From the IMG/VR virus record IMGVR_UViG_2693429557_000008, positions 1 through 12,679 of that record: a stretch of DNA of 12,679 bases; one strand, 5' to 3'. The notes beneath the pieces were generated by a model. That model ran no database searches. It was not told the DNA's origin and saw only the letters and a program-made list of their open reading frames with translations. Source of the DNA: a virus (lineage: Duplodnaviria > Heunggongvirae > Uroviricota > Caudoviricetes). The position numbers were made by a program, and so were the translations under genes. This document shows, one piece after another, positions 1 to 12,489 of this stretch. Numbering within the stretch: position 1 is the first letter of the stretch; the number at the start of each line of letters is the position of its first letter.

Positions 1-26
1 TTATCGAATACCTCGGTTTACAGGAA
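1..26 (+). other. Invertase crossover site 1 (gix/cix/hix-like 26-bp site, ttatcgaatacc-tc-ggtttacaggaa) lying inside the tail-fibre reading frame
   Basis: Two imperfect 12-bp half-sites flanking a central TC, resembling hix/gix half-sites (TTATCnAAnACC) as I recall them. An exact inverted copy lies at 2953-2978 and a 2-mismatch inverted copy at 4944-4969. The site is read through in frame as I-E-Y-L-G-L-Q-E-T. Confidence 0.8.
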
Positions 27-971
27 ACGGTAAATCAGGCTTCTGGCGCATTACAGAAAAACCAGAACGGCGCAGATATTCCGGGGAAAGATACCTTCAC
101 CAAAAATATTGGTGCCTGCCGCGCATATAGCTCATGGCTGAATATTGGTGGCGATAGTCAGGTCTGGACAACCGCGCAATTTATTTCGTGGCTGGAGAGT
201 CAGGGAGCATTTAACCATCCTTACTGGATGTGCAAAGGCTCATGGGCTTATGCAAATAATAAGGTCATTACAGATACAGGTTGCGGAAATATTTGTCTTG
301 CAGGTGCTGTGGTGGAAGTTATTGGCACTCGCGGCGCAATGACCATACGCGTTACCACGCCGAGCACGTCCAGCGGTGGCGGAATTACTAACGCTCAATT
401 CACTTATATTAATCATGGTGATGCTTACGCTCCTGGCTGGCGACGAGACTACAACACGAAAAATCAACAACCTGCATTTGCTTTAGGGCAAACAGGAAGC
501 ACTGTCGGAAATGATAAAGCTGTTGGCTGGAACTGGAATAGCGGGGTCTATAACGCAAACATTGGTGGCGCATCGACATTAATCCTCCACTTCAATATGA
601 ATACGGGGAGCTGCCCTGCTGTACAGTTCCGCGTGAATTACAGGAACGGCGGTATTTTTTATCGTTCAGCGCGTGATGGTTATGGCTTTGAAGCTGACTG
701 GTCAGAGTTTTACACCACAACCCGCAAACCCTCTGCGGGAGATGTTGGTGCATATACGCAGGCAGAATGTAACTCAAGGTTTATTACAGGTATTCGCCTT
801 GGTGGTCTGTTATCTGTTCAGACATGGAATGGTCCCGGATGGTCTGACAGGTCAGGTTATGTTGTTACCGGTTCCGTTAACTCAAACAGAGATGAACTAA
901 TTGATACAACTCAGGCAAGGCCAATTCAGTATTGCATTAATGGGACGTGGTATAACGCGGGGAGTATTTAA
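1..971 (+). CDS. Tail fibre protein, variable C-terminal segment A (5' end outside window; constant N-terminal part presumably upstream)
   Basis: Open frame from position 3 to TAA at 969-971. It begins inside the crossover site ([12 protein letters not shown]...) and ends with ...RPIQYCINGTWYNAGSI, a C-terminal motif shared with cassettes B and C. A tfa gene follows 2 nt downstream. Confidence 0.85.
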   Translation, partial: IEYLGLQETVNQASGALQKNQNGADIPGKDTFTKNIGACRAYSSWLNIGGDSQVWTTAQFISWLESQGAFNHPYWMCKGSWAYANNKVITDTGCGNICLAGAVVEVIGTRGAMTIRVTTPSTSSGGGITNAQFTYINHGDAYAPGWRRDYNTKNQQPAFALGQTGSTVGNDKAVGWNWNSGVYNANIGGASTLILHFNMNTGSCPAVQFRVNYRNGGIFYRSARDGYGFEADWSEFYTTTRKPSAGDVGAYTQAECNSRFITGIRLGGLLSVQTWNGPGWSDRSGYVVTGSVNSNRDELIDTTQARPIQYCINGTWYNAGSI

Positions 972-973
972 CG

Positions 974-1507
974 ATGATGCACTTAAAAAACATTTCTGCT
1001 GGTAATCCTGAAACAAAAGAGCAATACCAGCTAACGAAACAATTTAACATCAAATGGCTTTATACAGAGGATGGGAAAAACTGGTATGAGGAACAAAAGA
1101 ACTTTCAGCCTGATACGTTGAAAATGGTCTATGACCACAACGGCGTTATTATTTGTATTGAAAAGGATGTTTCAGCAATTAATCCGGAAGGCGCAAGCGT
1201 CGTTGAGGTTCCTGATATTACAGCAAATCGCCGGGCTGATATTTCAGGTAAATGGATGTTCAAAGATGGCGTAGTGATAAAGCGAACTTATACCGGGGAA
1301 GAGCAGAGGCAACAAGCGGAAAATGAAAAGCAAAGCCTGCTACAGCTCGTCAGGGATAAAACCCAGCTATGGGACTCACAGCTACGGCTGGGCATTATTT
1401 CCGACGAGAATAAACAAAAATTAACCGAGTGGATGCTCTATGCGCAGAAGGTCGAATCCACAGACACCTCCAGCCTGCCAGTAACGTTTCCCGAACAACC
1501 AGAATGA
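974..1507 (+). CDS. Tail fibre assembly chaperone (Tfa) for cassette A
   Basis: ATG ATG at 974, 2 nt after the fibre stop, with GGGGAG upstream. The N-terminus MMHLKNISAGNP...DGKNWYEE...FQPDT is the conserved Tfa N-domain, paralogous to the two - strand tfa genes. Ends TGA at 1505-1507. Confidence 0.9.
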   Translation: MMHLKNISAGNPETKEQYQLTKQFNIKWLYTEDGKNWYEEQKNFQPDTLKMVYDHNGVIICIEKDVSAINPEGASVVEVPDITANRRADISGKWMFKDGVVIKRTYTGEEQRQQAENEKQSLLQLVRDKTQLWDSQLRLGIISDENKQKLTEWMLYAQKVESTDTSSLPVTFPEQPE

Positions 1508-1731
1508 GAGAAGGCCCGCTATCGGGCCTTAATTTTTATTCAGGCTTTTGTGGCCATTCAGGATTTGCCGTATCCACACGGCTGACCAGAACACTGTAGC
1601 GTTCCCATGCTTCCAGTCGTGTGCGTTCCTCGTCCGTCGCCATATTCAGCCTGACAGCGCGTTCCAGCGGCTGGATGACTGATTCAGCTTCGGAAAGCAA
1701 TGCGGCCTTTTGTGATTCGGCCTGTTGTTGC
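1273..1731. repeat. Direct repeat copy 1 (~459 bp, ~98-99% identical to 3141-3599): tfa 3' end, terminator and 3' end of the convergent tfa
   Basis: Aligned by eye at a constant offset of 1868 bp. The only differences seen are about 6 substitutions clustered around the terminator. Confidence 0.85.
1511..1538. terminator. Bidirectional rho-independent terminator between convergent tfa genes
   Basis: aaggcccg-ctat-cgggcctt: 8-bp GC-rich stem with 4-nt loop, followed by a T-run on the + strand and preceded by an A-run, so it is U-rich on both transcripts. Confidence 0.65.
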
Positions 1732-2063
1732 AGTTCCTGTTCTGTATATTCCCTCTTTACTACTTTACCATCCAGAAACATCCATTTTCCGTTATTGTCT
1801 GCGTGACGATTTGCCGTAATATCAGGAACTTCAACTATGCTTAGCCCTTCAGGATTAATAGTTGAAACGTCTTTACTGACAGCAACGATGATGTTGTTCT
1901 CATCGTAAGCAATTTTTATGGTGTCTGGCTGAAAATTCTTTTGTTCCTCATACCAGTTTTTGCCATCTTCGCAAAAGAGCCATACCACGCCCGCTTTTTT
2001 AGTTAGCTGGTATTGTTCCGGTGTTTTCGGATTCCCGGCCTTAATATTTTTCAGGTGCATCAT
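1536..2063 (-). CDS. Tail fibre assembly chaperone (Tfa) for cassette B
   Basis: The track ORF 1536..2099 starts at TTG; the conserved [12 protein letters not shown] start is the ATG at 2063, one nt after the cassette B stop. Its C-terminal ~65 aa are identical to the tfa at 3404..3931. Confidence 0.9.
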
Positions 2064-2064
2064 C

Positions 2065-2978
2065 TTAAACACTCCCCACGTTGTACCATATTCCCCCAAT
2101 CAATTTCTGAATTGGCCTTCTGGCAACAGTGTCGACAATATCATCCGCATTGCTGTTAATTGCGGCTGTTAAAACATAACCTGACGCATCGCCAAAGCCG
2201 TAGTCGCGCCATACGTTTTTATATTCAATGCTGCCAAGACGAATATCCCGAACGACATGATTATGCAGCCATGTGCTTAACCAGTTGTTTTCCCACACTG
2301 AACCATAAATATCGCCACTAGACGCAACTTGCGCACCACTTCCCAGCGCAAATCCCCCATCTGTTTTAAAAATGAAATCACCACCACCATCTGAACCGTT
2401 ATTAATATGAACACCATCACCACCGTTATCTTTCCACAAAAACATACGAATTCTTCCGTCTTCGTTGGCGAATGTAATGTGGTGGCGGTAATTACTTTTT
2501 AATCTAAAATTGCTGCCATTAGATTCAATATCTTTATAAAGATGTAATCCTAACTCATCAATATGTCCGATGCGCGAACCATTTGAATAGAAGCTAATAA
2601 TACCATCTCCATCTTGCCTAAATCCGGTGTCGTTATCTCCCAGAACAATGGAGTTTTCACCCAGTGCGTTATCAGTAGCTCCAATAGCTAGACCTCCTTT
2701 AATTTTGGCCCCGTGGCTGACAGATATAGCACCTGTTCTCAGATTTATAGCGAATGGCCTTAATGGGCCGATATTACCGTTTTCGCCTTGTCCTTCAGCC
2801 GTCGGAATGAAATGAAGAAAATCTTCTGAACGACGGAAAATTAGACCGAAGGTATCATTGAAAATTCGCAGCGCATTCACCGTGCCAATTTTCAGTTCTC
2901 CGGTCATTTTATCGCCGGAACGCTGAACGGCGTTACCAGCCTTGTTTACCGTTTCCTGTAAACCGAGGTATTCGATAA
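2065..2978 (-). CDS. Tail fibre alternative C-terminal cassette B (silent in this orientation; no start codon or full constant region of its own)
   Basis: The frame runs from crossover site 2 ([17 protein letters not shown]...) to TAA at 2065-2067 and ends ...[18 protein letters not shown]. The track ORF 2065..3201 extends upstream only by reading through the constant-region fragment and the antisense of a tfa fragment. Confidence 0.8.
2953..2978 (-). other. Invertase crossover site 2 (inverted orientation, 26/26 identical to site 1)
   Basis: The reverse complement of 2949-2978 equals window positions 1-30 exactly. Confidence 0.85.
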
Positions 2979-3131
2979 CGGCAGCAACGGTCGATTTCGC
3001 AAGAATATCCCGCCCGACTTTTGTCAGGGTTGCCAGGCTGGCGACATCATTCCCCGTAAAATACGGAAACTTGCCTGCCGCAGTAGTAAGTCCGGCCAGC
3101 GCCGTCAGGGTGGCATCTTTCGGTTGCTTAC
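2979..3131 (-). pseudogene. Fragment of the tail-fibre constant region (3' ~150 bp) abutting site 2 in inverted orientation
   Basis: In frame with cassette B on the - strand: ...[48 protein letters not shown] followed by IEYLGLQ at the site. It has no start codon and ends abruptly at the boundary of the 459-bp repeat. Confidence 0.7.
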
Positions 3132-3140
3132 CCGCAAGCG

Positions 3141-3375
3141 AGTGATAAAGCGAACTTATACCGGGGAAGAGCAGAGGCAACAAGCGGAAAATGAAAAGCA
3201 AAGCCTGCTACAGCTCGTCAGGGATAAAACCCAGCTATGGGACTCACAGCTACGGCTGGGCATTATTTCCGACGAGAATAAACAAAAATTAACCGAGTGG
3301 ATGCTCTATGCGCAGAAGGTCGAATCCACAGACACCTCCAGCCTGCCAGTAACGTTTCCCGAACAACCAGAATGA
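3141..3375 (+). pseudogene. Truncated tfa gene (3' 235 bp, identical to the 3' end of the tfa at 974..1507)
   Basis: 3141-3375 appears base-for-base identical to 1273-1507 by eye. It encodes only the C-terminal ~77 aa (…KRTYTGEEQRQQAENEKQ…PVTFPEQPE). The track ORF 3124..3375 has no Tfa N-domain. Confidence 0.8.
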
Positions 3376-3378
3376 AAC

Positions 3379-3405
3379 AAGGCCCGATATCGGGCCTTAA
3401 TTTTT
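3379..3405. terminator. Bidirectional rho-independent terminator (second copy)
   Basis: aaggcccg-atat-cgggcctt followed by TTTTT. It is part of the 459-bp direct repeat; the stem is conserved and the loop differs by one base. Confidence 0.65.
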
Positions 3406-3931
3406 ACTCAGGCTTTTGTGGCCATTCTGGCTTTGCCGTATCCACACGGCTGACCAGAACACTGTAGCGTTCCCATGCTTCCAGTCGTGTGCGTTCCTCG
3501 TCCGTCGCCATATTCAGCCTGACAGCGCGTTCCAGCGGCTGGATGACTGATTCAGCTTCGGAAAGCAATGCGGCCTTTTGTGATTCGGCCTGTTGTTGCT
3601 GTTCGTCAGCCGTATAAATCCGTTTAACCACAGCTCCGTCCTTAAACATCCACTTACCGGAATCATCAGCACGACGATTAGCTGTAATATCAGGAACCTC
3701 AACGACGCTATAACCTTCAGGGTTAAGCGTGGAGGCATCTTTGGTGATGGCGACAATAATATTATTTGCATCGTAAACAATCTTTATTGTGTCTGGCTGA
3801 AAGTTCTTCACTTCCTCATACCAGTTTTTTCCGTCCTCAGAGTAAAGCCAGATGACTCCGTGCTTCTTTGTTAACTCATACTGCTCCACTGTTTTAGCAT
3901 TACCTGCTTTTATGTTCTTTAAGTGCATCAT
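3404..3931 (-). CDS. Tail fibre assembly chaperone (Tfa) for cassette C
   Basis: ATG ATG at 3931/3928 ([14 protein letters not shown]...), one nt after the cassette C stop. The track ORF start at 3964 is likely an upstream extension. It resembles e14 TfaE-type chaperones as I recall them. Confidence 0.9.
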
Positions 3932-3932
3932 A

Positions 3933-4961
3933 TTAAATACTCGCCACATTATACCAAGTGCCATTTATATACTTTTGCACTGGCCTGTAATGAACGCCTG
4001 CAATATTATCGGCAGAGTTTTTTCCGGTATCCTGTACGTTAATCCCCGTCAGTACATAGCCTGACGGGCACTGAAAATTCCATGTTTGCCAGTTGTTCAC
4101 TCCATAATATTGCTGTGAACCAAGTCGAACATCTTTCACATATCTGGAATCAAAATTGCCATAGTTGCCGGGAATAACTTGCGAGCCGCAAAGCCAGTTC
4201 CCGTTATTATCCATGTACGCCTGACCATCGGTGCCATTGGCTGTCCTTGAGTTATTAATCATGTAGATGCCAAATTGCTTATTTCCCAGACCGCCAATCA
4301 TAAATTTGCGGTCGGCATGGTCCTGACGGAGCAAAGCCTGAGCACCATCAGTGGATACCGCATTACGTCCCAAAATAACATTCTGGTCACGCATATGAAT
4401 CCACATGCCGGTACTACTGTTAATTGCAAAACGGTTTGCAAATATATCCCCTGTAACATCAAGACCATGCCCCATGCTTATCCGGCCAGTTCTGAGATTA
4501 AGCGTAAAGGGGCGTAGTGGCCCTATATTACCATTTTCCCCTTCATTCTCTCGTGTAGGGATGATATGCAGGCATTCTTCAGAACGACGAAAAATGGCAC
4601 CAAAAGATGAATTAAATATCCTCAGTGCATTGACTGTCGATATTTTCACTTCACTGCTGAAAAGGGCTTCAACAAGAACAGACAAAGCATTCCATTTAAG
4701 ATTCATCAGGTCTTTAGGCCGGGTGCCAATGATGCGGTGTCTCCATTTGAAATATTCATTGCCGTTGTTGCCTGTTTCAAACCACATGTAGGAATCGGTG
4801 TCTGCATCCGAATTATTTTTAAACCCAATCTTTGCCCAGTCAGTATTTCGAATCCAGGCAAGGATTGAGTCGTTTTCAAAAGTAAGTCCACCGGACAACG
4901 TATCGCCATTTTTTTGCACGGCGTTACCAGCCTTGTTTACCGTTTCCTGTAAACCGAGGTT
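3933..4961 (-). CDS. Tail fibre alternative C-terminal cassette C (silent in this orientation)
   Basis: The frame is open from just inside crossover site 3 to TAA at 3933-3935. The track M at 4919 is actually an in-frame GTG (Val) within ...[17 protein letters not shown].... Ends ...[20 protein letters not shown]. The upstream in-frame stop TAA (4962-4964) sits in the outer arm of site 3. Confidence 0.8.
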
Positions 4962-4969
4962 TTAGATAA
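4944..4969 (-). other. Invertase crossover site 3 (inverted orientation; variant outer arm ttatctaaaacc, same central TC)
   Basis: The reverse complement of 4940-4969 is ttatctaaaacctcggtttacaggaaacgg, matching site 1 at 28 of 30 positions. The inner flank (4921-4939) is identical to the flank of site 2. Confidence 0.8.
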
Positions 4970-5023
4970 TGGCCGTTTCCGGCCTGCATGGCATGATTTG
5001 CGCTTTTGGACGGGAGATTCAGC

Positions 5024-5611
5024 GTGCTGATTGGCTATGTAAGGGTATCAACAAATGACCAGAATACAGACCTGCAACGAAACGCTCTTGTTTGTGCAGG
5101 ATGTGAACAAATATTTGAAGATAAATTAAGCGGGACAAAGACAGACCGACCGGGATTAAAACGCGCTTTAAAGCGCCTTCAAAAAGGTGACACGCTGGTT
5201 GTCTGGAAACTGGATCGCCTCGGGCGAAGCATGAAACATCTGATTTCTCTCGTCGGGGAACTACGGGAGCGAGGAATTAATTTTCGCAGTCTGACCGACA
5301 GCATAGATACATCTTCTCCAATGGGGCGTTTTTTCTTCCACGTGATGGGTGCCCTGGCTGAAATGGAACGTGAATTAATTGTTGAACGTACACTGGCCGG
5401 ACTGGCGGCAGCACGCGCACGGGGGCGCACAGGCGGACGTCGACCGAAGCTGACAAAAGAACAGCATGAGCAAATAGCAAGGCTGATCAAAAACGGGCAC
5501 GACAGAAAACAACTGGCAATAATTTACGGCATTGGTATATCGACGATTTATCGTTACCACCCCGCAGGAGAATCAATCGGAACAATAGAGAAGAGTCAGG
5601 AAACAAAATAA
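5024..5611 (+). CDS. Serine-recombinase DNA invertase (Pin/Gin/Cin/Hin family)
   Basis: MLIGYVRVSTNDQNTDLQRNAL... with the catalytic Ser in the YVRVST motif and a C-terminal HTH region. A GTG start at 5024 has GGGAGA 6 nt upstream; the track ORF begins at an upstream TTG at 5006. Ends TAA at 5609-5611. Confidence 0.93.
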   Translation: MLIGYVRVSTNDQNTDLQRNALVCAGCEQIFEDKLSGTKTDRPGLKRALKRLQKGDTLVVWKLDRLGRSMKHLISLVGELRERGINFRSLTDSIDTSSPMGRFFFHVMGALAEMERELIVERTLAGLAAARARGRTGGRRPKLTKEQHEQIARLIKNGHDRKQLAIIYGIGISTIYRYHPAGESIGTIEKSQETK

Positions 5612-5640
5612 CCGCTAATCTGACCATTAGCGGTTTTTGT
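5611..5640. terminator. Bidirectional rho-independent terminator between invertase (+) and U (-)
   Basis: accgctaat-ctgacc-attagcggt: 9-bp stem with 6-nt loop, followed by TTTTTGT on the + strand and by a U-rich run on the - strand transcript. Confidence 0.7.
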
Positions 5641-5646
5641 GTTAAA

Positions 5647-6141
5647 TCAGAACAACCCTTTAACTGAACTGGCCGCGCTGTTAAGGGATGATGTTACCTT
5701 ATCTTTGAAGCCGGACAGCATATCGCTGAACGATGAGGATTGCAGGCGCTCCCGCAAATCCTCATCACAGCGTTCAAGAGTCAGTGAAAATTCTATCTTT
5801 TTCGCCTTACCGTAGCGATCAAACTCGGAGCGGGTCGTATTCGTTTCGGTCAGGACATACATGCCGTAAATCTGCCCGACGCCATCAATCAGAGGCCAGG
5901 GTCGTCCTGTATACGCCTGCGTGGTCAGCAGCGACAGCGACACTTCGCCACCTGTAATTTCAGGATAAAGCACACCAGAAAGAACGATGCGCTCATCACC
6001 TGCACCGATATACTGCCAGCTTGCCGAACGGTTAACGCGTTCATTTTTCACATGCCGCCAGCTTTTGTTTTGCTGTAACTGCTGATGCGGCAATGTACGC
6101 AGCTCAAAAACAAACATGCCGTAGATCATCATCATGGCCAT
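5647..6141 (-). CDS. U: Tail protein U homologue (P2 gpU-like)
   Basis: About 160 aa, immediately downstream of the tape measure gene, with a …SWRH…LSGVL.PE.TGG… pattern I recall from gpU. The start is ambiguous among ATGs at 6141, 6135 and 6132; GAGGAG at 6144-6149 favours 6135 or 6132. Confidence 0.8.
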   Translation of the reverse strand: MAMMMIYGMFVFELRTLPHQQLQQNKSWRHVKNERVNRSASWQYIGAGDERIVLSGVLYPEITGGEVSLSLLTTQAYTGRPWPLIDGVGQIYGMYVLTETNTTRSEFDRYGKAKKIEFSLTLERCDEDLRERLQSSSFSDMLSGFKDKVTSSLNSAASSVKGLF

Positions 6142-6147
6142 GACTCC

Positions 6148-8955
6148 TCAATCTTTATCGTAAAAACTGCCACGCCCGGCACGGGCGCGCCGTTCCATTT
6201 CTGCCCTGACCATTTCACCGACCAGTTTCGCCAGTTCGCGGGGATTCTGCGTAACAACGTTATGCAGATGAACATGAATTTCACCACCAAATCCGGAGGC
6301 AACAGGCTCCCGGTTACGGGAAGTTACAGGAACTGATGCCACTGGAGAGCGTATGGCCTCCGCCACCGGGCGGGAGCTGGCCGCAACAACAGGGACCAGC
6401 GCCGGAGGCAGCGGAGCCGGGACCACGGGTGTGATATTAATTGCGGGGGCAGGCTTACTGACCTGCGCAATCTTCCGCTCCTGCCACTCCCCACGAACAG
6501 CAAGTGCGCGGGGCAGGTTCTTAAAGACAATATCGCCGGGGCCAATGCGTTTTTTCGTCTCATCAACCAGCTTACCTGTGTTATCAGCAATTTTGCTGAG
6601 TCTGCGTAGCGTCCCGGTATTGCTGTCTGTGAGCGGTTTGTTGTCTTTGGGTTTATCACCTCCGGTGCCATTGCCATTTTCCACAGGCTTCGGCGGATTG
6701 ATTTTCGCCAGGTCCCCCTGAAGCAAGGCAACCTTGTCCTGAAGAATGGCCGCACGCTGTGCGTCTTCGATTTTCTTGCGCGCCCTTTCCGCTTCATCCG
6801 GAAGGACGCCAAGTTTTTCAAGTATCCACGCCAGCGTATCCAGTAGCATTTTTGCAGGTGTCAGAACAAGTTGTAACGCACCGCCAAGAACGTTACCGAA
6901 TATCTCGCCAGCACTGGCACATTTATCCAGCGTTTCCTTGCTGGACTCCATCGGTGACAGCAGCGATTTAAACCAGTTAAAGACCTGAATAATCCCATCG
7001 CGCACGACATCAAAAACAGGGCCAAACCGTTCAAAGGTTTCGCGCAACGGGGTCAGCCTTTCCATAATCCCGCTGAACACCCCGGCAAAAAATGCCCTGA
7101 TGGGATCCCAGTATTTCCAGATAAGAACGGCAGCTCCGGCAAGCGCAGCCACGATAAGACTAACCGGACTGAACAGCGCCCCGATAGCGCCACCAAGTAA
7201 AGAAACGGAACCCGTCACCATTCCCCATAATGCAGGCAGAACCCTGACAACATTCATTGATTCGGTCAGGAGAGAAAAACCGAGACGCAACGTAGCCAGC
7301 TTCCCGTGAAGCACCCCAATAACCAGAGACAACGAACCAACCGTTGCTGTTGTCGCCAGCAGTGCGCCTCCCGCTATCAGTAACTGGCGCGTCAGTGCCG
7401 GGTGGGCCTGCGCCAGCGCCGTCACCTTTGAGACAACCCGCGTGAGCCACTGCGTGACAGAACGCAGCGGACCGTCAACCAGATCACTGATGCGAATACG
7501 CAGACCTTCCCATGCACTGCCGAGTGATTTCAGGTTGCCATCAAGGTTATTGGCCATAACCTTTGCCGTGCGTTCTGCCTCACCGCGCGCGCCTTCAAGT
7601 TCTTTTCTCAGTTTGGCTAAGAAGCCGTCACCTGCCGCATCAACGAGGCCCATAAATGATGTGAAAGCCTCTTCTCCGGCAATGTCCTTAAAGAACGATA
7701 CCCGGTCAACCTCCCCGTATTTGCGGGTGGCTTTATAGAGATCGGCCAGCACATTCTCCATCGGGCGCATTTTGCCTTTGGCGTCAGCAACTGACACCCC
7801 CAGCTCTTTCAGTGCTTCTGCCGCTGCCTTTGGCGGTGATGACAGATTGGCCAGGCTTTTACGCAACGCTGTACCTGCATCACTCCCCCTGATACCCATC
7901 TTCGCCAGCACGCCCGCCATCGCTGCGGCCTGCTCCAGCGATATTCCCAGCTTACCCGCCACCGGACCTGCATATTTCATGGTTTCGCCCAGTGCGCGAA
8001 GGTCAGTGTTGGTACGGGTAAACGCTGCGGTAAGTGTGTCACCGACCCGGTCCATCTGGTCAGCAGAGAGGCCGAACTGCGTCAGGATATTGGAACCAAT
8101 ATCCGCCGTCTCGCCGAGGTCCATACCGCCAGCCGTTGCCATGCTCAGCACGCCGGGAAGCGCAGCCTGAATGGCCTGCGGTGTGAAACCAGCCATTGCA
8201 AGAAATGCCTGTCCACTGGCGGCATCGCCTGCGGTGAACTGCGTTTCAGAGCCAAGTTTTAACGCCTGCTCACGCAGCGCCTTAAACTGCGGGCTGTTTT
8301 TATCGATTCGCGTCAGTGCCTGAACACGGGACATCTCTTTCCCGAACCCGATAGCGGGCTGCAAAAAACGCCCGGCAGCATAGCCGCCCGCTGCCGCCGC
8401 ACCTGTTGCCAGCGCACCACCTGTTTTCAGTTTTCCCGCTGTTTCCTGCGCGCGTGAATACCGCTCACGCGCCTGCGTTACACGCGCAAGCGCCCGCCGT
8501 TCGCGTTCAAGCTGGTTGTTGTATTGTCCGGTGCGTCTGATGGCCTGCTGGATGGTGTTATCGCTGCCTGTCAGGGAAATGCCGTGGCGTTTCAGCTCTC
8601 CGCCAAGTTCCCGCATTTTCTGAATTTCCCGTGTGCGCGATTCATTCAGGCGTTCAAGCCGGGTGCTTAACTGCTGCATCAGCTTTTGTTGTTTTTCGCT
8701 GAGCACTGTACCCGTGCGTTGTAACTGATTAAGGGCGTTAAGCTGGCGTCGTGCTTTCACGATGCCCGCATCCGCTTTACTGACAGCGTCACGGGCGCGC
8801 TCAAATGAACGCGCCTGACGCTCGAGATTTTTGATCGCCCCCTGCGTTCGCTGGATGGAGTCACCAAACTGCCCCATCAGGCGGCGGGCGTTTTCGGCAG
8901 GCCGGGTCAGCCTGTCAACGGCGCTGAAAGCGACCCGGATATCAAGAGTCTTCAT
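6148..8955 (-). CDS. T: Tail tape measure protein (P2 gpT-like)
   Basis: A ~935-aa ORF, alanine/glycine-rich, with predicted hydrophobic segments and a proline-rich C-terminal stretch. It sits between E+E' and U, and its start overlaps the E' end. The track start at 8991 is GTG; ATGs at 8964 and 8955 are alternatives, 8955 having GGGAA 8 nt upstream. Confidence 0.88.
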   Translation of the reverse strand: MKTLDIRVAFSAVDRLTRPAENARRLMGQFGDSIQRTQGAIKNLERQARSFERARDAVSKADAGIVKARRQLNALNQLQRTGTVLSEKQQKLMQQLSTRLERLNESRTREIQKMRELGGELKRHGISLTGSDNTIQQAIRRTGQYNNQLERERRALARVTQARERYSRAQETAGKLKTGGALATGAAAAGGYAAGRFLQPAIGFGKEMSRVQALTRIDKNSPQFKALREQALKLGSETQFTAGDAASGQAFLAMAGFTPQAIQAALPGVLSMATAGGMDLGETADIGSNILTQFGLSADQMDRVGDTLTAAFTRTNTDLRALGETMKYAGPVAGKLGISLEQAAAMAGVLAKMGIRGSDAGTALRKSLANLSSPPKAAAEALKELGVSVADAKGKMRPMENVLADLYKATRKYGEVDRVSFFKDIAGEEAFTSFMGLVDAAGDGFLAKLRKELEGARGEAERTAKVMANNLDGNLKSLGSAWEGLRIRISDLVDGPLRSVTQWLTRVVSKVTALAQAHPALTRQLLIAGGALLATTATVGSLSLVIGVLHGKLATLRLGFSLLTESMNVVRVLPALWGMVTGSVSLLGGAIGALFSPVSLIVAALAGAAVLIWKYWDPIRAFFAGVFSGIMERLTPLRETFERFGPVFDVVRDGIIQVFNWFKSLLSPMESSKETLDKCASAGEIFGNVLGGALQLVLTPAKMLLDTLAWILEKLGVLPDEAERARKKIEDAQRAAILQDKVALLQGDLAKINPPKPVENGNGTGGDKPKDNKPLTDSNTGTLRRLSKIADNTGKLVDETKKRIGPGDIVFKNLPRALAVRGEWQERKIAQVSKPAPAINITPVVPAPLPPALVPVVAASSRPVAEAIRSPVASVPVTSRNREPVASGFGGEIHVHLHNVVTQNPRELAKLVGEMVRAEMERRARAGRGSFYDKD

Positions 8956-9471
8956 TGTCTGCATTCCCGCTGCGAAGTGCCGCCCGCTCACGCCAGCTAA
9001 CCACTTCGCCGGGCGTCATCATGAAGATTTCGGCGGGCGACCAGTTAAAAATGGCGGCAATATCCGCCACAAAGTCTTCTATGTGCTCAAAGCACACAAC
9101 CGTGATCAGGCTTCCGTCGCCTGTTCGTTCTTCTCGCCAGAGTCCGCACCGCTCAAAAAATTTACGGCAACCACACATAACTGAATAAAGTCACGGGATG
9201 CCATTTTTTTGATCGTCACTTCATCCAGTCGCGGTGATGTCACGCGTGACAGCAGCGTAAACATGGATTCCGCTTTCAAATTCAGCACATCAGACAGCGA
9301 CAAATCTCGCAGAGATCCAGCCTGCTCAATAGCCCCGGTGATCTCCACATACGTGATTTTTTCGCCGCCTCGCTCAATTGGTTGGGTAAGTTTTACGCCA
9401 CGCTCACTGGTTTCTTTCACAGTGTCAGCAACGACCGTGTTTTCGGTATCGATGTTTTTCGTCTCTTTCAT
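8942..9471 (-). CDS. E+E' fusion produced by programmed -1 ribosomal frameshift (slip at 9154-9160)
   Basis: The -1 frame is blocked by a stop at 9191-9193 and then open from 9190 to TGA at 8942-8944. The E-frame heptamer T-TTT-TTG lies inside this overlap. The predicted fusion is about 176 aa. Confidence 0.7.
9106..9471 (-). CDS. E: Tail assembly chaperone E (P2 gpE / lambda G analogue)
   Basis: ATG at 9471 with AAGGAG 7 nt upstream. The 121-aa zero-frame product ends at TGA 9108-9106. It lies between the tube gene and the tape measure gene and contains a TTTTTTG slippery heptamer. Confidence 0.8.
   Translation of the reverse strand: MKETKNIDTENTVVADTVKETSERGVKLTQPIERGGEKITYVEITGAIEQAGSLRDLSLSDVLNLKAESMFTLLSRVTSPRLDEVTIKKMASRDFIQLCVVAVNFLSGADSGEKNEQATEA
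9154..9160 (-). promoter_or_regulatory. Slippery heptamer T TTT TTG for the E/E' -1 frameshift
   Basis: The - strand reads aaT TTT TTG agc in the E frame (…V N F L S…). This is the heptamer I recall being reported for the P2 E/E+E' frameshift. Confidence 0.65.
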
Positions 9472-9525
9472 CAGGAAACTCCTTTCAGTCAGAGGCGACG
9501 CACTGCGCCGCCTGCATATTACTTA

Positions 9526-10038
9526 TCAGCCAAGCCCGAGCGCGGAACGGATGCGATCGGGCACAATGTCCCTGCCGTCCTTCCGGTAAATGAAGTTCAG
9601 CAGGTCAATCTCCCACAACGGGCGATCGTTAACACTCAGCTTGTAGTAGGTGTTTTTAATGGCGTAAGTGTGTGATGTGGCTTCGCCCTGTTTGGCTTCC
9701 CCCATATCAATTTCCGTCACACGTCCGCGCATTTCGACTTCATACAGGTCGCTTTCAGCGTCGGTGTAGTATTCACCCGCAAAACGCAGCAGCGTACCGT
9801 CAATCGTGCCGCCATACTTAAGGAACAGCTCACGAACTGCGCCCCCCATGACAAAGCTCGCATCAAGCGCGGAGTCATCCAGGCCGAGATCAATACTTAC
9901 CGCTCCCATCATGCCACCACCCCGGTAGCTGTCGGTTTTGCGCGTCAGCTTAGGCAGAGTGACGGACGTCACCTTACCCACTTCGTTTTCACCATCCACA
10001 AACAGCGTAAAAAAGCGAAGATGTTTTGGTACAGCCAT
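9526..10038 (-). CDS. FII: Tail tube protein (P2 FII-like)
   Basis: A 170-aa ORF whose ATG at 10038 overlaps the sheath TGA stop (shared A at 10038, translational coupling). Size and position match the P2 F_I-F_II pair. Confidence 0.88.
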   Translation of the reverse strand: MAVPKHLRFFTLFVDGENEVGKVTSVTLPKLTRKTDSYRGGGMMGAVSIDLGLDDSALDASFVMGGAVRELFLKYGGTIDGTLLRFAGEYYTDAESDLYEVEMRGRVTEIDMGEAKQGEATSHTYAIKNTYYKLSVNDRPLWEIDLLNFIYRKDGRDIVPDRIRSALGLG

Positions 10039-11222
10039 CAGGCACCTCCCAGCACCGCAAATGCGGGACCAAAGAATTCATCAGTAAACGACTGGTAAAG
10101 CTCCATGTCTTCCAGCGGGGGAACAGGCGTATATTTGTAGCGAATACGCACGCGCCCCTGACGTAAATTCGTGGTGCCGTTATCCACCACGTCATACCAG
10201 CACGACGCCCCAATCAGTTTCCCGGCAGTAACCAGTGAATCCAGTTTTGCCCTGATGGCACCGATAACATCCTTCACGTTCGCAGGCGTCAGTGGACTGT
10301 CGATGGTTTCAAACTGCGCTTCCGCAATTGAATCAGCCAGCACCTGTGCGGTTCGGGTATACACCTCAAAGATGTAGGCGTTCGTTTCCGGTGTGCGGTT
10401 GCCCCAGAAGCGGAACCCGTTGCGACGAATAATGGTCGTGATTTCTTTGTTGTTGAGGCTGTTGGCATCACTGTCTTCGGCCTGCAACGACCAGAACACA
10501 TGCCTGGACATCCCCAGCACATTTTTAACCGGAACGTTGGACAGCGATTTGTGCCAGCCCTGCTCATGGTCAATGTACGCACGAAGGCCGCACGCATAGG
10601 CAGGCGCGGGGAACGTTTCGTTTTTGCCACTTTTCGGGTTGTAGGCGATGAAGTCCGGCCATAAGAGCATCACCTCACGTTCGTTGAATTTCTGGCGGTA
10701 GGTAATTGCCTCAGCCATCGTGTTACAGTCATGACATGAGGCATACACAAACGCGCGCAGTTTACCCGCAATCACGCACAGGGATTTTGTCACCGCCTCC
10801 GTGTCCAGCTCCGGCGCGGCCAGAATACGCGGACGGTATCCGATGCTTTCATCCTGCTCTGCAACAAGCAGCGCATACATCCCCGTATAGCTGCCGTCAG
10901 ATTCAGAACCACCGATAACCAGTTGATCCTGCGTTTTTCCGTCTTCTTCTTTGTGTTCAGCCACGCGAACGACGATCACCTTTGTGCTCACCTGGTCTGC
11001 GATGGCCTTAAGCGCACGATAAAGCGTCCCCGTTGTTCCGCATTTTCCCAGCACGTCATTGACGCGGGGCAGCAGTGTGGGCTTGTTCAGCGGGAACAGC
11101 TCCGCGTCCGCATCATCCGCCGTTGCCACGATACCGATAACGCTGGAATCAACATCGTTAATCGCTGTTACCAGGTCGGTATTTTCCGTAACACGGGCAC
11201 CATGAAAACGAGTTTCACTCAT
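10038..11222 (-). CDS. FI: Contractile tail sheath protein (P2 FI-like)
   Basis: A 394-aa ORF with motifs I recall from P2-family sheaths (FPLNKP…, EQGWHK.LSNV, RRNGFRFWGNRT, YTRTAQV, YKYTPVPPLE). ATG at 11222 with AAGGGG 8 nt upstream. Confidence 0.93.
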   Translation of the reverse strand: MSETRFHGARVTENTDLVTAINDVDSSVIGIVATADDADAELFPLNKPTLLPRVNDVLGKCGTTGTLYRALKAIADQVSTKVIVVRVAEHKEEDGKTQDQLVIGGSESDGSYTGMYALLVAEQDESIGYRPRILAAPELDTEAVTKSLCVIAGKLRAFVYASCHDCNTMAEAITYRQKFNEREVMLLWPDFIAYNPKSGKNETFPAPAYACGLRAYIDHEQGWHKSLSNVPVKNVLGMSRHVFWSLQAEDSDANSLNNKEITTIIRRNGFRFWGNRTPETNAYIFEVYTRTAQVLADSIAEAQFETIDSPLTPANVKDVIGAIRAKLDSLVTAGKLIGASCWYDVVDNGTTNLRQGRVRIRYKYTPVPPLEDMELYQSFTDEFFGPAFAVLGGA

Positions 11223-11379
11223 AGCTTCAACCCCTTGTATCCGTTAAATGATTCGGCAACAATCATCACCCACCACGCGCGTAATCTCACCCCTGCGCCA
11301 TTCTCCCGCCACGGCGACAACAAAAAGCAGTAACCCCCTCCGCACGCACATGCGACCATGCCACACAGGGAGGGAGCAG

Positions 11380-12489
11380 ATGACCGACACCACCATGCAA
11401 TTGCTCAGTCAGGGCACAGACCCCGTGAAAATGCCGGATTTTGATATTCTCGCGGAGGGTAAAACGCTGTCAGGCGTGGCAGAGCGCCTGATGAGCCTGT
11501 CACTGACCGACAACCGGGGATTTGAGGCGGACCAGCTCACCATCACGCTGGATGATGCGGATGGTCAGTTGCAGCTACCGCCACGGGGCGCGCGCCTGAC
11601 GGTTCTCATTGGCTGGAAGGGAGAACCGCTGACAGAAAAAGGCACTTACATTGTTGATGAAATCGCTCACGAAGGACCGCCGGACAGGCTGACTGTTTCA
11701 GCCAGAAGCGCAGATTTTCGGGCTGAATTTAACGTTAAACGTGAGGTGTCCTGGCATGATGTGACCGTTGAGCGTGTGGTATCCGCCATCGCTCATCGGT
11801 ATGGTCTGAAACCGCAAATCAGCGAAATGCTGATGGATATCGAAATCGACCACGCCGACCAGACCGAAGAAAGCGACATGTCCTTCCTTACGCGCATGGC
11901 GGAAATGCTGGGCGCAATCACCACGGTAAAAAGCGGTAATCTGTTATTCATCATGCCCGGTGGTGGCGTGAACGCACAGGGCCAGCCGTTGCCCTCGTTC
12001 GCCATCACACGCAGCAGCGGCGATCGCCATCAGTTCCGCATTGCTGACCGCGAAGCGTATACGGGGGTACGCGCTTACTGGCTTGATCTTAATTACGGGA
12101 AAAAGAAAAAAGTCAGCGTGAAACGCCGCAAACCGTCAAAACCAAAAAAGGAGAAAAGCAGCAGCCGGGAAGGCGACTATATGGAAGGTGCGGAAGGCAA
12201 CGTGTTTGTGTTACGCAAAACTTATCAGAACGAGCAGGCAGCAAGACGTGCAGCGGCGGCAAAGTGGCAGCAGCTACAACGCGGAGCCGCATCATTCTCC
12301 ATCACACTGGCGCATGGACGTGCAGAACTCTACCCCGAAATGCATGGCACGGTAACAGGATTTAAAAGCGAGATTGATAATCAGGACTGGATTATTGCAA
12401 AAGCCGAGCACACCATTGATAACAGCGGCTTTACCACGCAGCTTGAGCTTGAGGCAAAAATCCCGGAATGGATAGCAGAAACAGAGTGA
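11380..12489 (+). CDS. D: Tail protein D homologue (P2 gpD-like late tail gene)
   Basis: The ORF track opens at 11248, but the ATG at 11380 has GGGAGGGAG upstream and gives MTDTTMQLLSQGTDPVKMPDFDIL…LTDNRGFEADQL…RSADFR…SWHD…, matching the gpD pattern as I remember it. It includes a lysine-rich low-complexity insert (KKKKVSVKRRKPSKPKKEK). Confidence 0.85.
   Translation: MTDTTMQLLSQGTDPVKMPDFDILAEGKTLSGVAERLMSLSLTDNRGFEADQLTITLDDADGQLQLPPRGARLTVLIGWKGEPLTEKGTYIVDEIAHEGPPDRLTVSARSADFRAEFNVKREVSWHDVTVERVVSAIAHRYGLKPQISEMLMDIEIDHADQTEESDMSFLTRMAEMLGAITTVKSGNLLFIMPGGGVNAQGQPLPSFAITRSSGDRHQFRIADREAYTGVRAYWLDLNYGKKKKVSVKRRKPSKPKKEKSSSREGDYMEGAEGNVFVLRKTYQNEQAARRAAAAKWQQLQRGAASFSITLAHGRAELYPEMHGTVTGFKSEIDNQDWIIAKAEHTIDNSGFTTQLELEAKIPEWIAETE

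Follow-up and report, generated by a model that had tools for sequence, protein, structure and literature searches.

Invertible tail-fibre segments that carry two cassettes and are flipped by Gin, Cin or Pin are textbook systems. The Min system of plasmid p15B, a P1-related plasmid prophage, was reportedly described by Iida, Sandmeier, Arber and co-workers between 1990 and 1994; it is said to combine a Din-family invertase with six crossover sites and many isomers, to shuffle tail-fibre 3′ segments, and to carry mosaic fibre genes that arose when unrelated phages recombined. Haggard-Ljungquist et al. in 1992 (P2 H/G) and Sandmeier in 1994 likewise reportedly described horizontal transfer of tail-fibre modules among unrelated phages. 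In the P2-like prophage of enteropathogenic Escherichia coli (EPEC) E2348/69, three inverted repeats give rise to four isomers and three C-termini, as established by PCR and sequencing (Goldberg et al. 2014, PMC4272514), and each isomer converts into two others (PMC4272514). Here we describe a three-cassette tail-fibre locus in the IMG/VR virus record IMGVR_UViG_2693429557_000008, of which we analysed a stretch of 12,679 nucleotides (nt), hereafter the window. We consider, with a probability of roughly 80%, that this locus is an invertible switch of the Mu-G/P1-C type (Gin/Cin/Pin) in a P2-like prophage and that it has grown from two cassettes (A/C) to three (A/B/C). Cassette B appears to have been captured from a lambdoid prophage rather than duplicated from a resident cassette, because both B and the fibre constant-region fragment beside it (Hc′) are identical to lambdoid and not to P2-like versions. 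The three-cassette arrangement is uncommon but not new in kind, and it involves no new mechanism or system. All coordinates below are window positions unless a locus identifier (L followed by a number) is named.

The gene order was obtained from open reading frames (ORFs), Pfam matches and crossover-site scans of the window. The scans found three crossover sites, each with at most one mismatch to the gix-like pattern, against 0 expected from 200 shuffles. Site 1 (1–26, minus strand) is a gix/cix-like 26-mer, TTCCTGTAAACC-GA-GGTATTCGATAA as read on the minus strand, with 0 mismatches to the pattern. Site 2 (2953–2978, plus strand) has the identical sequence in opposite orientation, and site 3 (4944–4969, plus strand), which adjoins the invertase gene, is also inverted relative to site 1. 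All three align with the gix regions of Mu and have the form known from the Din family, namely 26-bp imperfectly palindromic sites with a 2-bp core that stand inverted around a segment. The gene at 5024–5611 (plus strand) encodes a Gin-like serine DNA invertase of 195 amino acids (aa). It joins a resolvase catalytic domain (Pfam Resolvase, E 1e-50) to a C-terminal helix-turn-helix (HTH_7), the architecture of small serine recombinases, and matches the Gin structures PDB 4M6F and 3UJ3 at E ~1e-100; its residues 1–103 differ from Gin by one conservative exchange (K/R) and contain the motif YVRVSTNDQ. The stretch 4929–5412 aligns ungapped to Mu gixR and the 5′ end of gin at 91.3%, and in the Din family a Fis-dependent recombinational enhancer lies within the 5′ part of the invertase gene.

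Cassette A (3–971, plus strand; gp37_C), a homologue of Mu S′v at ~92%, is open from site 1 to its stop codon at 969–971 and is followed by tfaA (974–1507, plus strand; Caudo_TAP, E 7e-37), which encodes its complete 177-aa tail-fibre assembly chaperone. Cassettes B (2065–2952, minus strand; gp37_trimer) and C (3933–4943, minus strand; partly Mu Sv-like) point the other way, and the frame of B runs through site 2. Each is served by a 175-aa chaperone, encoded by tfaB (1536–2063, minus strand; Caudo_TAP-type profile match) and by tfaC (3404–3931, minus strand), a homologue of Mu U. Against Mu, A, tfaA and tfaB align to S′v, U′ and U at 92%, and C aligns to Sv at 84–90%. The constant region of the fibre gene lies upstream of site 1, beyond the window, and P2-type tail genes follow beyond the invertase gene.

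The locus thus has the near-identical invertase catalytic domain and the 26-bp gix-like sites of the Mu G/Gin system (also P1/P7 C/Cin and e14 P/Pin), and it resembles Mu G further in placing a constant fibre part outside the segment and convergent modules of cassette plus tfa inside it. Where these systems have two sites and two cassettes, the present locus has three of each, and it additionally contains an internal piece of constant region and a truncated tfa; it also lies in a P2-like genome and not in that of Mu or P1. With the Min system of p15B it shares the presence of more than two crossover sites, here three, on which one Din-family invertase would act, and a mosaic build derived from unrelated phages. 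The reading frames of all three cassettes are open; with the constant region of a close relative (L003) placed in front, A, B and C form single ORFs of 656, 637 and 678 aa, and in relatives natural proteins with precisely these lengths are called. With that constant region, the plan is the one typical of the Din family, a constant 5′ part outside the segment and in-frame 3′ cassettes, each with its tfa, inside.

The Gin-like invertase would recombine site 1 with either site 2 or site 3. Enumeration of the isomers gave four states arranged in a cycle (links 0-1, 0-2, 1-3 and 2-3), which would provide three alternative in-frame fibre C-termini (A, B and C), each with its own chaperone gene behind it. 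This state graph matches that of EPEC E2348/69, which also has the same type of P2-like backbone and an invertase beside an inverted tail block. The EPEC locus differs in its sites (1891695, 1892127 and 1893703), in its short cassettes, which are of another family, and in its single annotated tfa; by annotation it has neither a large direct repeat nor a tfa/Hc′ scar, and no donor was identified there. Inversion between sites 1 and 3 is documented among the relatives of the window: in L003, which is 99.8% identical to 3141–4973, cassette C joins the constant region at a hybrid site that combines the inner half of site 3 with the outer half of site 1. The segment accordingly occurs in both orientations, A-ON in the window and in L147 and C-ON in L003 and L020. 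Use of site 2, dependence on Fis and the enhancer, and coexistence of the isomers are presumed by analogy with the known systems. Cassette B is in use on this P2-like backbone, in L017 (A/B) and in L018 (B locked ON), and the closest B-ON P2-type fibre (H) proteins, of 637 aa, are named Shigella sonnei at NCBI. The locked state of L018 (E. coli 4238, NZ_CP103533.1) goes with a deletion at 5589–5805 of that locus that keeps cassette B permanently ON. Of tfaA, this deletion leaves the final 35 nt (from window-equivalent 1473), now adjoining the helix-turn-helix end of the invertase gene (window-equivalent 5471), and it took out A, most of tfaA and most of the invertase gene.

The sequence-only reading of the window had drawn attention to a near-identical 459-bp direct repeat at 1273–1731 and 3141–3599. 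The two copies, in register at +1868 nt, are identical at 453 of 459 positions (98.7%) with zero gaps, above the 95% limit which that reading had set; the six mismatches lie at 1508, 1510, 1519, 1539, 1560 and 1563. A repeat scan of the window returned the first 300 nt as family D1. Repeats of such length and identity cannot arise by chance. As that reading had also stated, the repeat takes in the convergent terminator together with the conserved 3′ portions of both minus-strand tfa genes: a GC-rich hairpin followed by a T-run, resembling an intrinsic terminator, lies between the convergent tfaA and tfaB (1511–1530, plus strand; −20.5 kcal/mol, z −4.9) and recurs in the second copy (3379–3398, plus strand). 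Identity between the copies is complete in the tfaA 3′ end (235/235) and amounts to 25/28 in the intergenic part with the hairpin and to 193/196 in the minus-strand tfa 3′ ends; unbroken blocks of identity measure 235 bp and 168 bp. The left edge is sharp, since identity before 1273/3141 is at the level of chance (5–8 of 20). Past the right edge at 1731/3599 it is ~65–70%, corresponding to the diverged N-terminal two-thirds of tfaB and tfaC, and this edge is an older boundary between variable N-terminal and conserved C-terminal chaperone parts.

Comparison with relatives indicates that the repeat is a composite. Its first 235 bp would be a true duplication, and the remaining 224 bp a likeness between donor and recipient that existed beforehand, so duplication would account for 235 of the 459 bp and not for the other 224. 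The 224-bp part appears to be the intergenic region of the donor with the 3′ end of tfaB; conservation of the C-terminal chaperone domain had made it similar beforehand to the intergenic region and tfaC 3′ end of the recipient. Conservation of this module is 94–97% across the compared relatives, a set with lambdoid, P2-like and plasmid-borne prophages. Copy 1 is of recipient type at 1273–1507 and of donor type at 1508–1563, and carries recipient markers at 1635 and 1638; copy 2 is of recipient type throughout, with 0 mismatches to L147.

The donor type was recognized in a lambdoid prophage. The window at 1454–3140 differs from the invertible segment of lambdoid L006 at 1635 and 1638 only, compared with 18 mismatches in 1208–1453, and 1732–3140, which includes all of cassette B, is 100% identical to the lambdoid loci L006, L010 and L138 (middle contig). 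Hc′ (2979–3140, minus strand) is a 162-nt fibre constant-region fragment of the lambdoid Stf type and has neither its own promoter nor its own start. It matches the lambdoid Stf-type constant region (L010/L012) at 100% identity, compared with 7/162 mismatches to the resident-type constant region of the P2-like relative L003. The exact TfaB protein is widespread among lambdoid prophages. The captured donor tract would thus extend from 1508 to 3140, its left limit being ambiguous within 1454–1507, and site 2 would have come with the donor DNA. Prophages of the donor type adjoin the trp operon. One chromosome, CP032523.1, which lies outside the complete E. coli RefSeq genome set that we searched, holds both the donor (L006, 4.26–4.28 Mb) and a copy of the recipient disrupted by an insertion sequence (IS) (L148, 3.72 Mb), ~550 kb apart.

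Beside the segment, at ~12000–13500 of the lambdoid loci L005–L014, lie a 60-aa Resolvase fragment, a gene for a 222-aa methyltransferase and Caudo_TAP fragments of 74–89 aa. Among genomes the lambdoid segment is found in both orientations, with B ON in L006 and another cassette ON in L010. Because it is found in both despite having only a Resolvase fragment, inversion in trans by another invertase, for example the P2-like Gin homologue, is suggested.

The recipient would have been an A/C prophage identical to L147 (GCA_013902205.1). When 1273–3140 is removed from the window, the remainder matches L147 at every one of the 10,051 overlapping nt (100.000% identity), leaving zero differences from the A/C parent; over 1–1507 there are 0 mismatches to L147 and 2 to L020. 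Single-repeat variants with only cassettes A and C, for which the sequence-only reading had proposed to look, therefore exist, and L147 equals the window minus 1868 bp. The relatives examined on the same backbone carry two cassettes, A/C in L001 and L020 and A/B in L017. The exact C-cassette protein occurs in 341 blocks of the assembly collection, and all 8 of the 8 places shown are two-cassette A/C loci. A single place accounting for at least 80% of the 5.7-kb query exists in 27 complete E. coli genomes; among the matches listed, it extends over only ~3.7–3.9 kb, which is ~1.8–2.0 kb below the query length.

Recipient-type A/C prophages L148, L150 and L153, found in IS-rich chromosomes that probably belong to S. 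sonnei (e.g., CP032523.1), carry IS3-family insertions at two places, one separating the invertase gene from cassette C and the other within tfaA. By blast, the latter lies at about window-equivalent 1379 in L148, and the gene pattern is alike in L150 and L153. In consequence of these insertions, many copies of the switch are disabled.

The two ends of the captured tract differ in kind. On the left, copy 1 carries recipient markers up to 1453 (11 between 1273 and 1453), is ambiguous at 1454–1507, where donor and recipient are the same, and then carries donor markers at 1508–1563 (n = 6), recipient markers at 1635 and 1638 (n = 2) and donor sequence again from 1732. This pattern points to homologous exchange inside the conserved tfa 3′ ends, at 1454–1731, and patchiness of this kind would follow from mismatch repair in a heteroduplex or, alternatively, from a donor allele that was not sampled. 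On the right, at 3140/3141, donor sequence ending in CAAGCG (the donor continues with CGTTAGTC) meets tfaA at AGTGATAAAG (GGCGT precedes it in the recipient). No more than 3 nt (at most GCG/AGT) are common to the partners there, and the join is therefore illegitimate; it attaches Hc′, at a point 162 nt from the crossover site, to tfaA at codon 101. The idea that the B module was inserted by homologous recombination between tfa 3′ ends consequently holds for one side and fails for the other. Of the two origins offered for the module in the sequence-only reading, insertion or duplication, its addition to an A/C element agrees with the data, but duplication does not, given that 1732–3140 is fully lambdoid and that Hc′ is of the lambdoid type.

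Directly behind the illegitimate join lies a 3′ fragment of tfaA (3141–3375, plus strand) with residues 101–177 of TfaA. It was correctly recognized from the sequence alone as less than a complete chaperone: it covers positions 60–131 of the 131 in the Caudo_TAP profile, and of the two domains of such chaperones, the N-terminal fibre-binding and the C-terminal one, it lacks the former. For TfaMu, fibre binding is assigned to the N-terminal domain and oligomerization to the conserved, helical C-terminal domain (PMC9608196). Lacking the specificity domain, the 77-aa fragment is therefore best read as a relic of the capture. An ORF is possible from GTG at 3142 or TTG at 3124, and no significant promoter signal was found upstream of the fragment; 3 promoter-like sites occur in 900–5100, compared with 8.6 expected. 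Both the fragment and Hc′ are probably inert relics.

As donor we propose a co-resident, defective lambdoid prophage next to the trp operon, whose invertible segment stood in the B-ON orientation, with the order Stf constant region, site, B, tfaB, terminator and the tfaA 3′ end of that prophage. From it, ~1.63–1.69 kb would have entered the recipient through two joins, the first a homologous exchange in the tfa 3′ ends and the second an illegitimate joining of the constant region to codon 101 of the recipient tfaA. Most economically, repair or replication of the break-induced or template-switch kind would have entered the lambdoid template by way of the homologous tfa 3′ ends, proceeded over ~1.6 kb of it and returned to the recipient 235 nt behind the point where it had left; an equivalent three-strand exchange is an alternative. 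The 235-bp duplication of the tfaA 3′ end would then have arisen because the two joins were staggered on the recipient. The capture may also be reversible. The sequence-only reading had suggested that the repeats could mediate RecA-dependent loss of the intervening 1868 bp, and deletion in silico gives L147. The blocks of identity in the repeat are long enough for such a deletion, which would drop B and restore the A/C form; a crossover in the 235-bp block would recreate L147 exactly. Inversion between sites 1 and 2 would turn the copies into inverted repeats, so that homologous inversion is also conceivable.

Several points weigh against our interpretation of the locus as a working three-cassette switch formed by capture. 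The fusion ORFs were modelled with the constant region of a relative (L003), as the locus's own lies outside the window. Two states were seen among assemblies, compared with four predicted, and recombination at site 2 is likewise a prediction. The junction at 3140/3141 occurs in 0 of 5,426 complete E. coli genomes (megablast of 2900–3400), and 40-nt and 22-nt junction patterns, with the G/T variant, were absent from species-representative genomes, IMG/VR and JGI metagenomes. The only independent hints come from the draft contigs L003 and L004, which start one base before the repeat; their first base is T (as at 1272) and not G (as at 3140), so that they do not display the junction. This T could be an assembler quirk, a single-nucleotide polymorphism at the junction base or the mark of a slightly different junction. 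The recipient-donor-recipient-donor order of markers in copy 1 calls for patchy mismatch repair or an unsampled donor allele, and the sequence does not tell a template switch from separate exchanges. Further searches for the three-cassette form were also negative: neither the junction-spanning 378-aa ORF nor the 83-aa ORF is on record in exact-protein look-ups, and a genuine third site was found in 0 of 120 IMG/VR loci carrying this site type.

There is a slim chance that the three-cassette order is an assembly artefact, a chimera of P2-like and lambdoid reads from one genome. The two parents do co-reside, and they have exact repeats in common (54 nt at 1454–1507 and a 43-nt site flank); other assemblies encountered here are chimeric or scaffolded (L138 and the S. 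sonnei loci L142–L145), the patchy markers in 1508–1731 could stem from polishing with mis-mapped reads, and the junction is unseen in the other sequences searched. Against this, the at most 3 nt at 3140/3141 leave no k-mer in common, and a graph assembler therefore cannot make the join; the window contains no N. Moreover, four NCBI records, named E. coli, list the 77-aa tfa fragment as a gene in its own right, and L003 and L004, which carry it, both break within 1 nt of the junction boundary, as a contig would at a fork marking the edge of a real repeat.

Candidates for independent copies of the junction or of a third site were set aside. H71 (Ecol_867), which appeared as a junction match, is a different rearrangement. 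L138 (IMGVR_UViG_2695420708_000013), taken for a second three-site locus, proved to be a scaffold with a single N at each joint (5233 and 10309). It joins a P2-like backbone, 100% identical to window 4918–10149, to 5 kb of the lambdoid prophage and back; it misleads as a phage genome, yet it shows both prophages in one isolate. The extra site of L068 reflects a circular genome assembled past its end, and PhiR68_1, annotated with ‘tail fiber protein x3’, has a plain two-cassette Mu-like segment. The Sanger-type S. sonnei scaffolds L142–L145 have implausible gene orders, with 458 N in L142, and were not used for structure. In L015 (E. coli Ecol_867, NZ_CP018983.1), a full-length fibre gene at 6706–9227 of that locus abuts a convergent tfa and has no downstream tfa of its own; L015 is another rearranged variant of the switch.

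Equally improbable is a Campbell-type insertion, in which an 1868-bp circle from the lambdoid segment would have integrated by a single homologous crossover in the 459-bp homology. A direct repeat around an insert is the classic footprint of such an event, and insert plus one repeat measure 1868 bp. A crossover at 1454–1507, however, predicts a donor-type tfaA 3′ end in copy 2. Donor and recipient differ at 11 positions in 1273–1453, and copy 2 has the recipient state at all of them (0 mismatches to L147), so that a rescue of this route requires a later gene conversion of at least 180 bp.

It is highly unlikely that the polarity was the reverse, with the three-cassette form ancestral and the A/C form derived from it by deletion between the repeats. 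Recombination in the 235-bp block does yield L147 exactly, and single A/C genomes are indistinguishable from revertants. The B tract, however, bears scars without function (the truncated tfaA and the promoterless, Stf-type Hc′) and is 100% identical to another prophage of the same chromosome. A/C loci are also abundant, as the 341 blocks and the 8/8 places shown above indicate, against the window and at most 4 records for the three-cassette form, and Mu itself is a two-cassette, A/C-like system.

Barely credible is a tandem duplication in situ, in which a resident unit of the P2-like prophage (constant-region end, site, cassette, tfa, terminator and tfaA 3′ end) would have been doubled by unequal crossing-over, one cassette later diverging or being replaced. 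The layout does suggest a unit of ~1.9–2.0 kb, with the D2 site repeats 1991 nt and the 459-bp repeats 1868 nt apart, and the tfaA 3′ piece is fully identical (235/235) between the copies. But derivation of all copies from the resident sequence holds for this 235-bp piece alone; Hc′, B, most of tfaB and the intergenic markers are of the lambdoid-donor type, Hc′ being 7/162 off the resident-type constant region and, like B and the N-terminal part of tfaB (1732–3140), 100% identical to the lambdoid version, and zero differences from the A/C parent elsewhere leave no time for divergence. A single unequal crossover between P2-like phages of the A/B and A/C types is out, although both types exist (L017 and L001), as Hc′ and B are identical to the lambdoid versions.

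Cassette gain in multi-cassette switches is usually deduced from old and eroded mosaics. Here the parents are at hand, with 0 differences for the recipient and 2 (1635 and 1638) for the donor, so that the breakpoints can be read to the nucleotide. Capture of B would be a clean and very recent case of a known route of host-range widening, and a worked example of module capture from one prophage by another. In likeness to the known exchanges of fibre modules, a P2-type fibre gene would have gained a C-terminal module and its chaperone from a lambdoid phage through conserved patches. It differs from them in that B was added as an extra invertible cassette and not as a replacement, and in that both parents are found at 100% identity in one chromosome, with breakpoints mapped to the nucleotide. 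A cryptic prophage can, on this account, widen the host-range repertoire of an inducible one. There is also a practical warning, as such loci break or mislead short-read assemblies.

A further exchange between the same partners was observed in L146 (GCA_013906895.1, a contig without N). At 10648–11026 of that locus the P2-like fibre constant region changes to the lambdoid Stf type, with the switch point ~260–350 nt upstream of the crossover site, and the contig goes on into lambdoid B, tfaB, tfaA′, a pin fragment and a methyltransferase gene. L146 thus appears to be a second, independent homologous exchange or rearrangement between these two prophages. With the capture described here and the P2/Stf hybrid fibre gene of L146 as its two examples, we raise, as a tentative and rather doubtful idea, that the defective lambdoid prophage is a standing reservoir of fibre-tip cassettes for an intact P2-like prophage that shares its E. 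coli/Shigella chromosome. Modules would then pass between the two phage families by recurrent exchanges, primed by homology in the tfa 3′ ends and constant regions. If this is true, such exchanges would add invertible cassettes, and the direct repeats would allow short-term gain and loss of host-range options.

Two further observations concern the tail genes beyond the switch. In canonical P2, genes FI-FII-E-T-U-D follow H-G in the same direction. In the window, the tail block at 5647–11222 (sheath, tube, E, tape measure and gpU) lies on the minus strand, opposite to the fibre operon and gpD/ogr in the plus-strand parts 1–5611 and 11248–12489, and the same arrangement is seen in L001, L015–L018 and L020. 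A divergent control region must therefore lie between the sheath gene and gpD, at ~11222–11380. Just upstream of the tape-measure gene, at 8942–9471 (minus strand), gpE (121 aa) overlaps with small ORFs of the GpE family, the kind of layout known from the programmed −1 frameshift of P2 E/E′.

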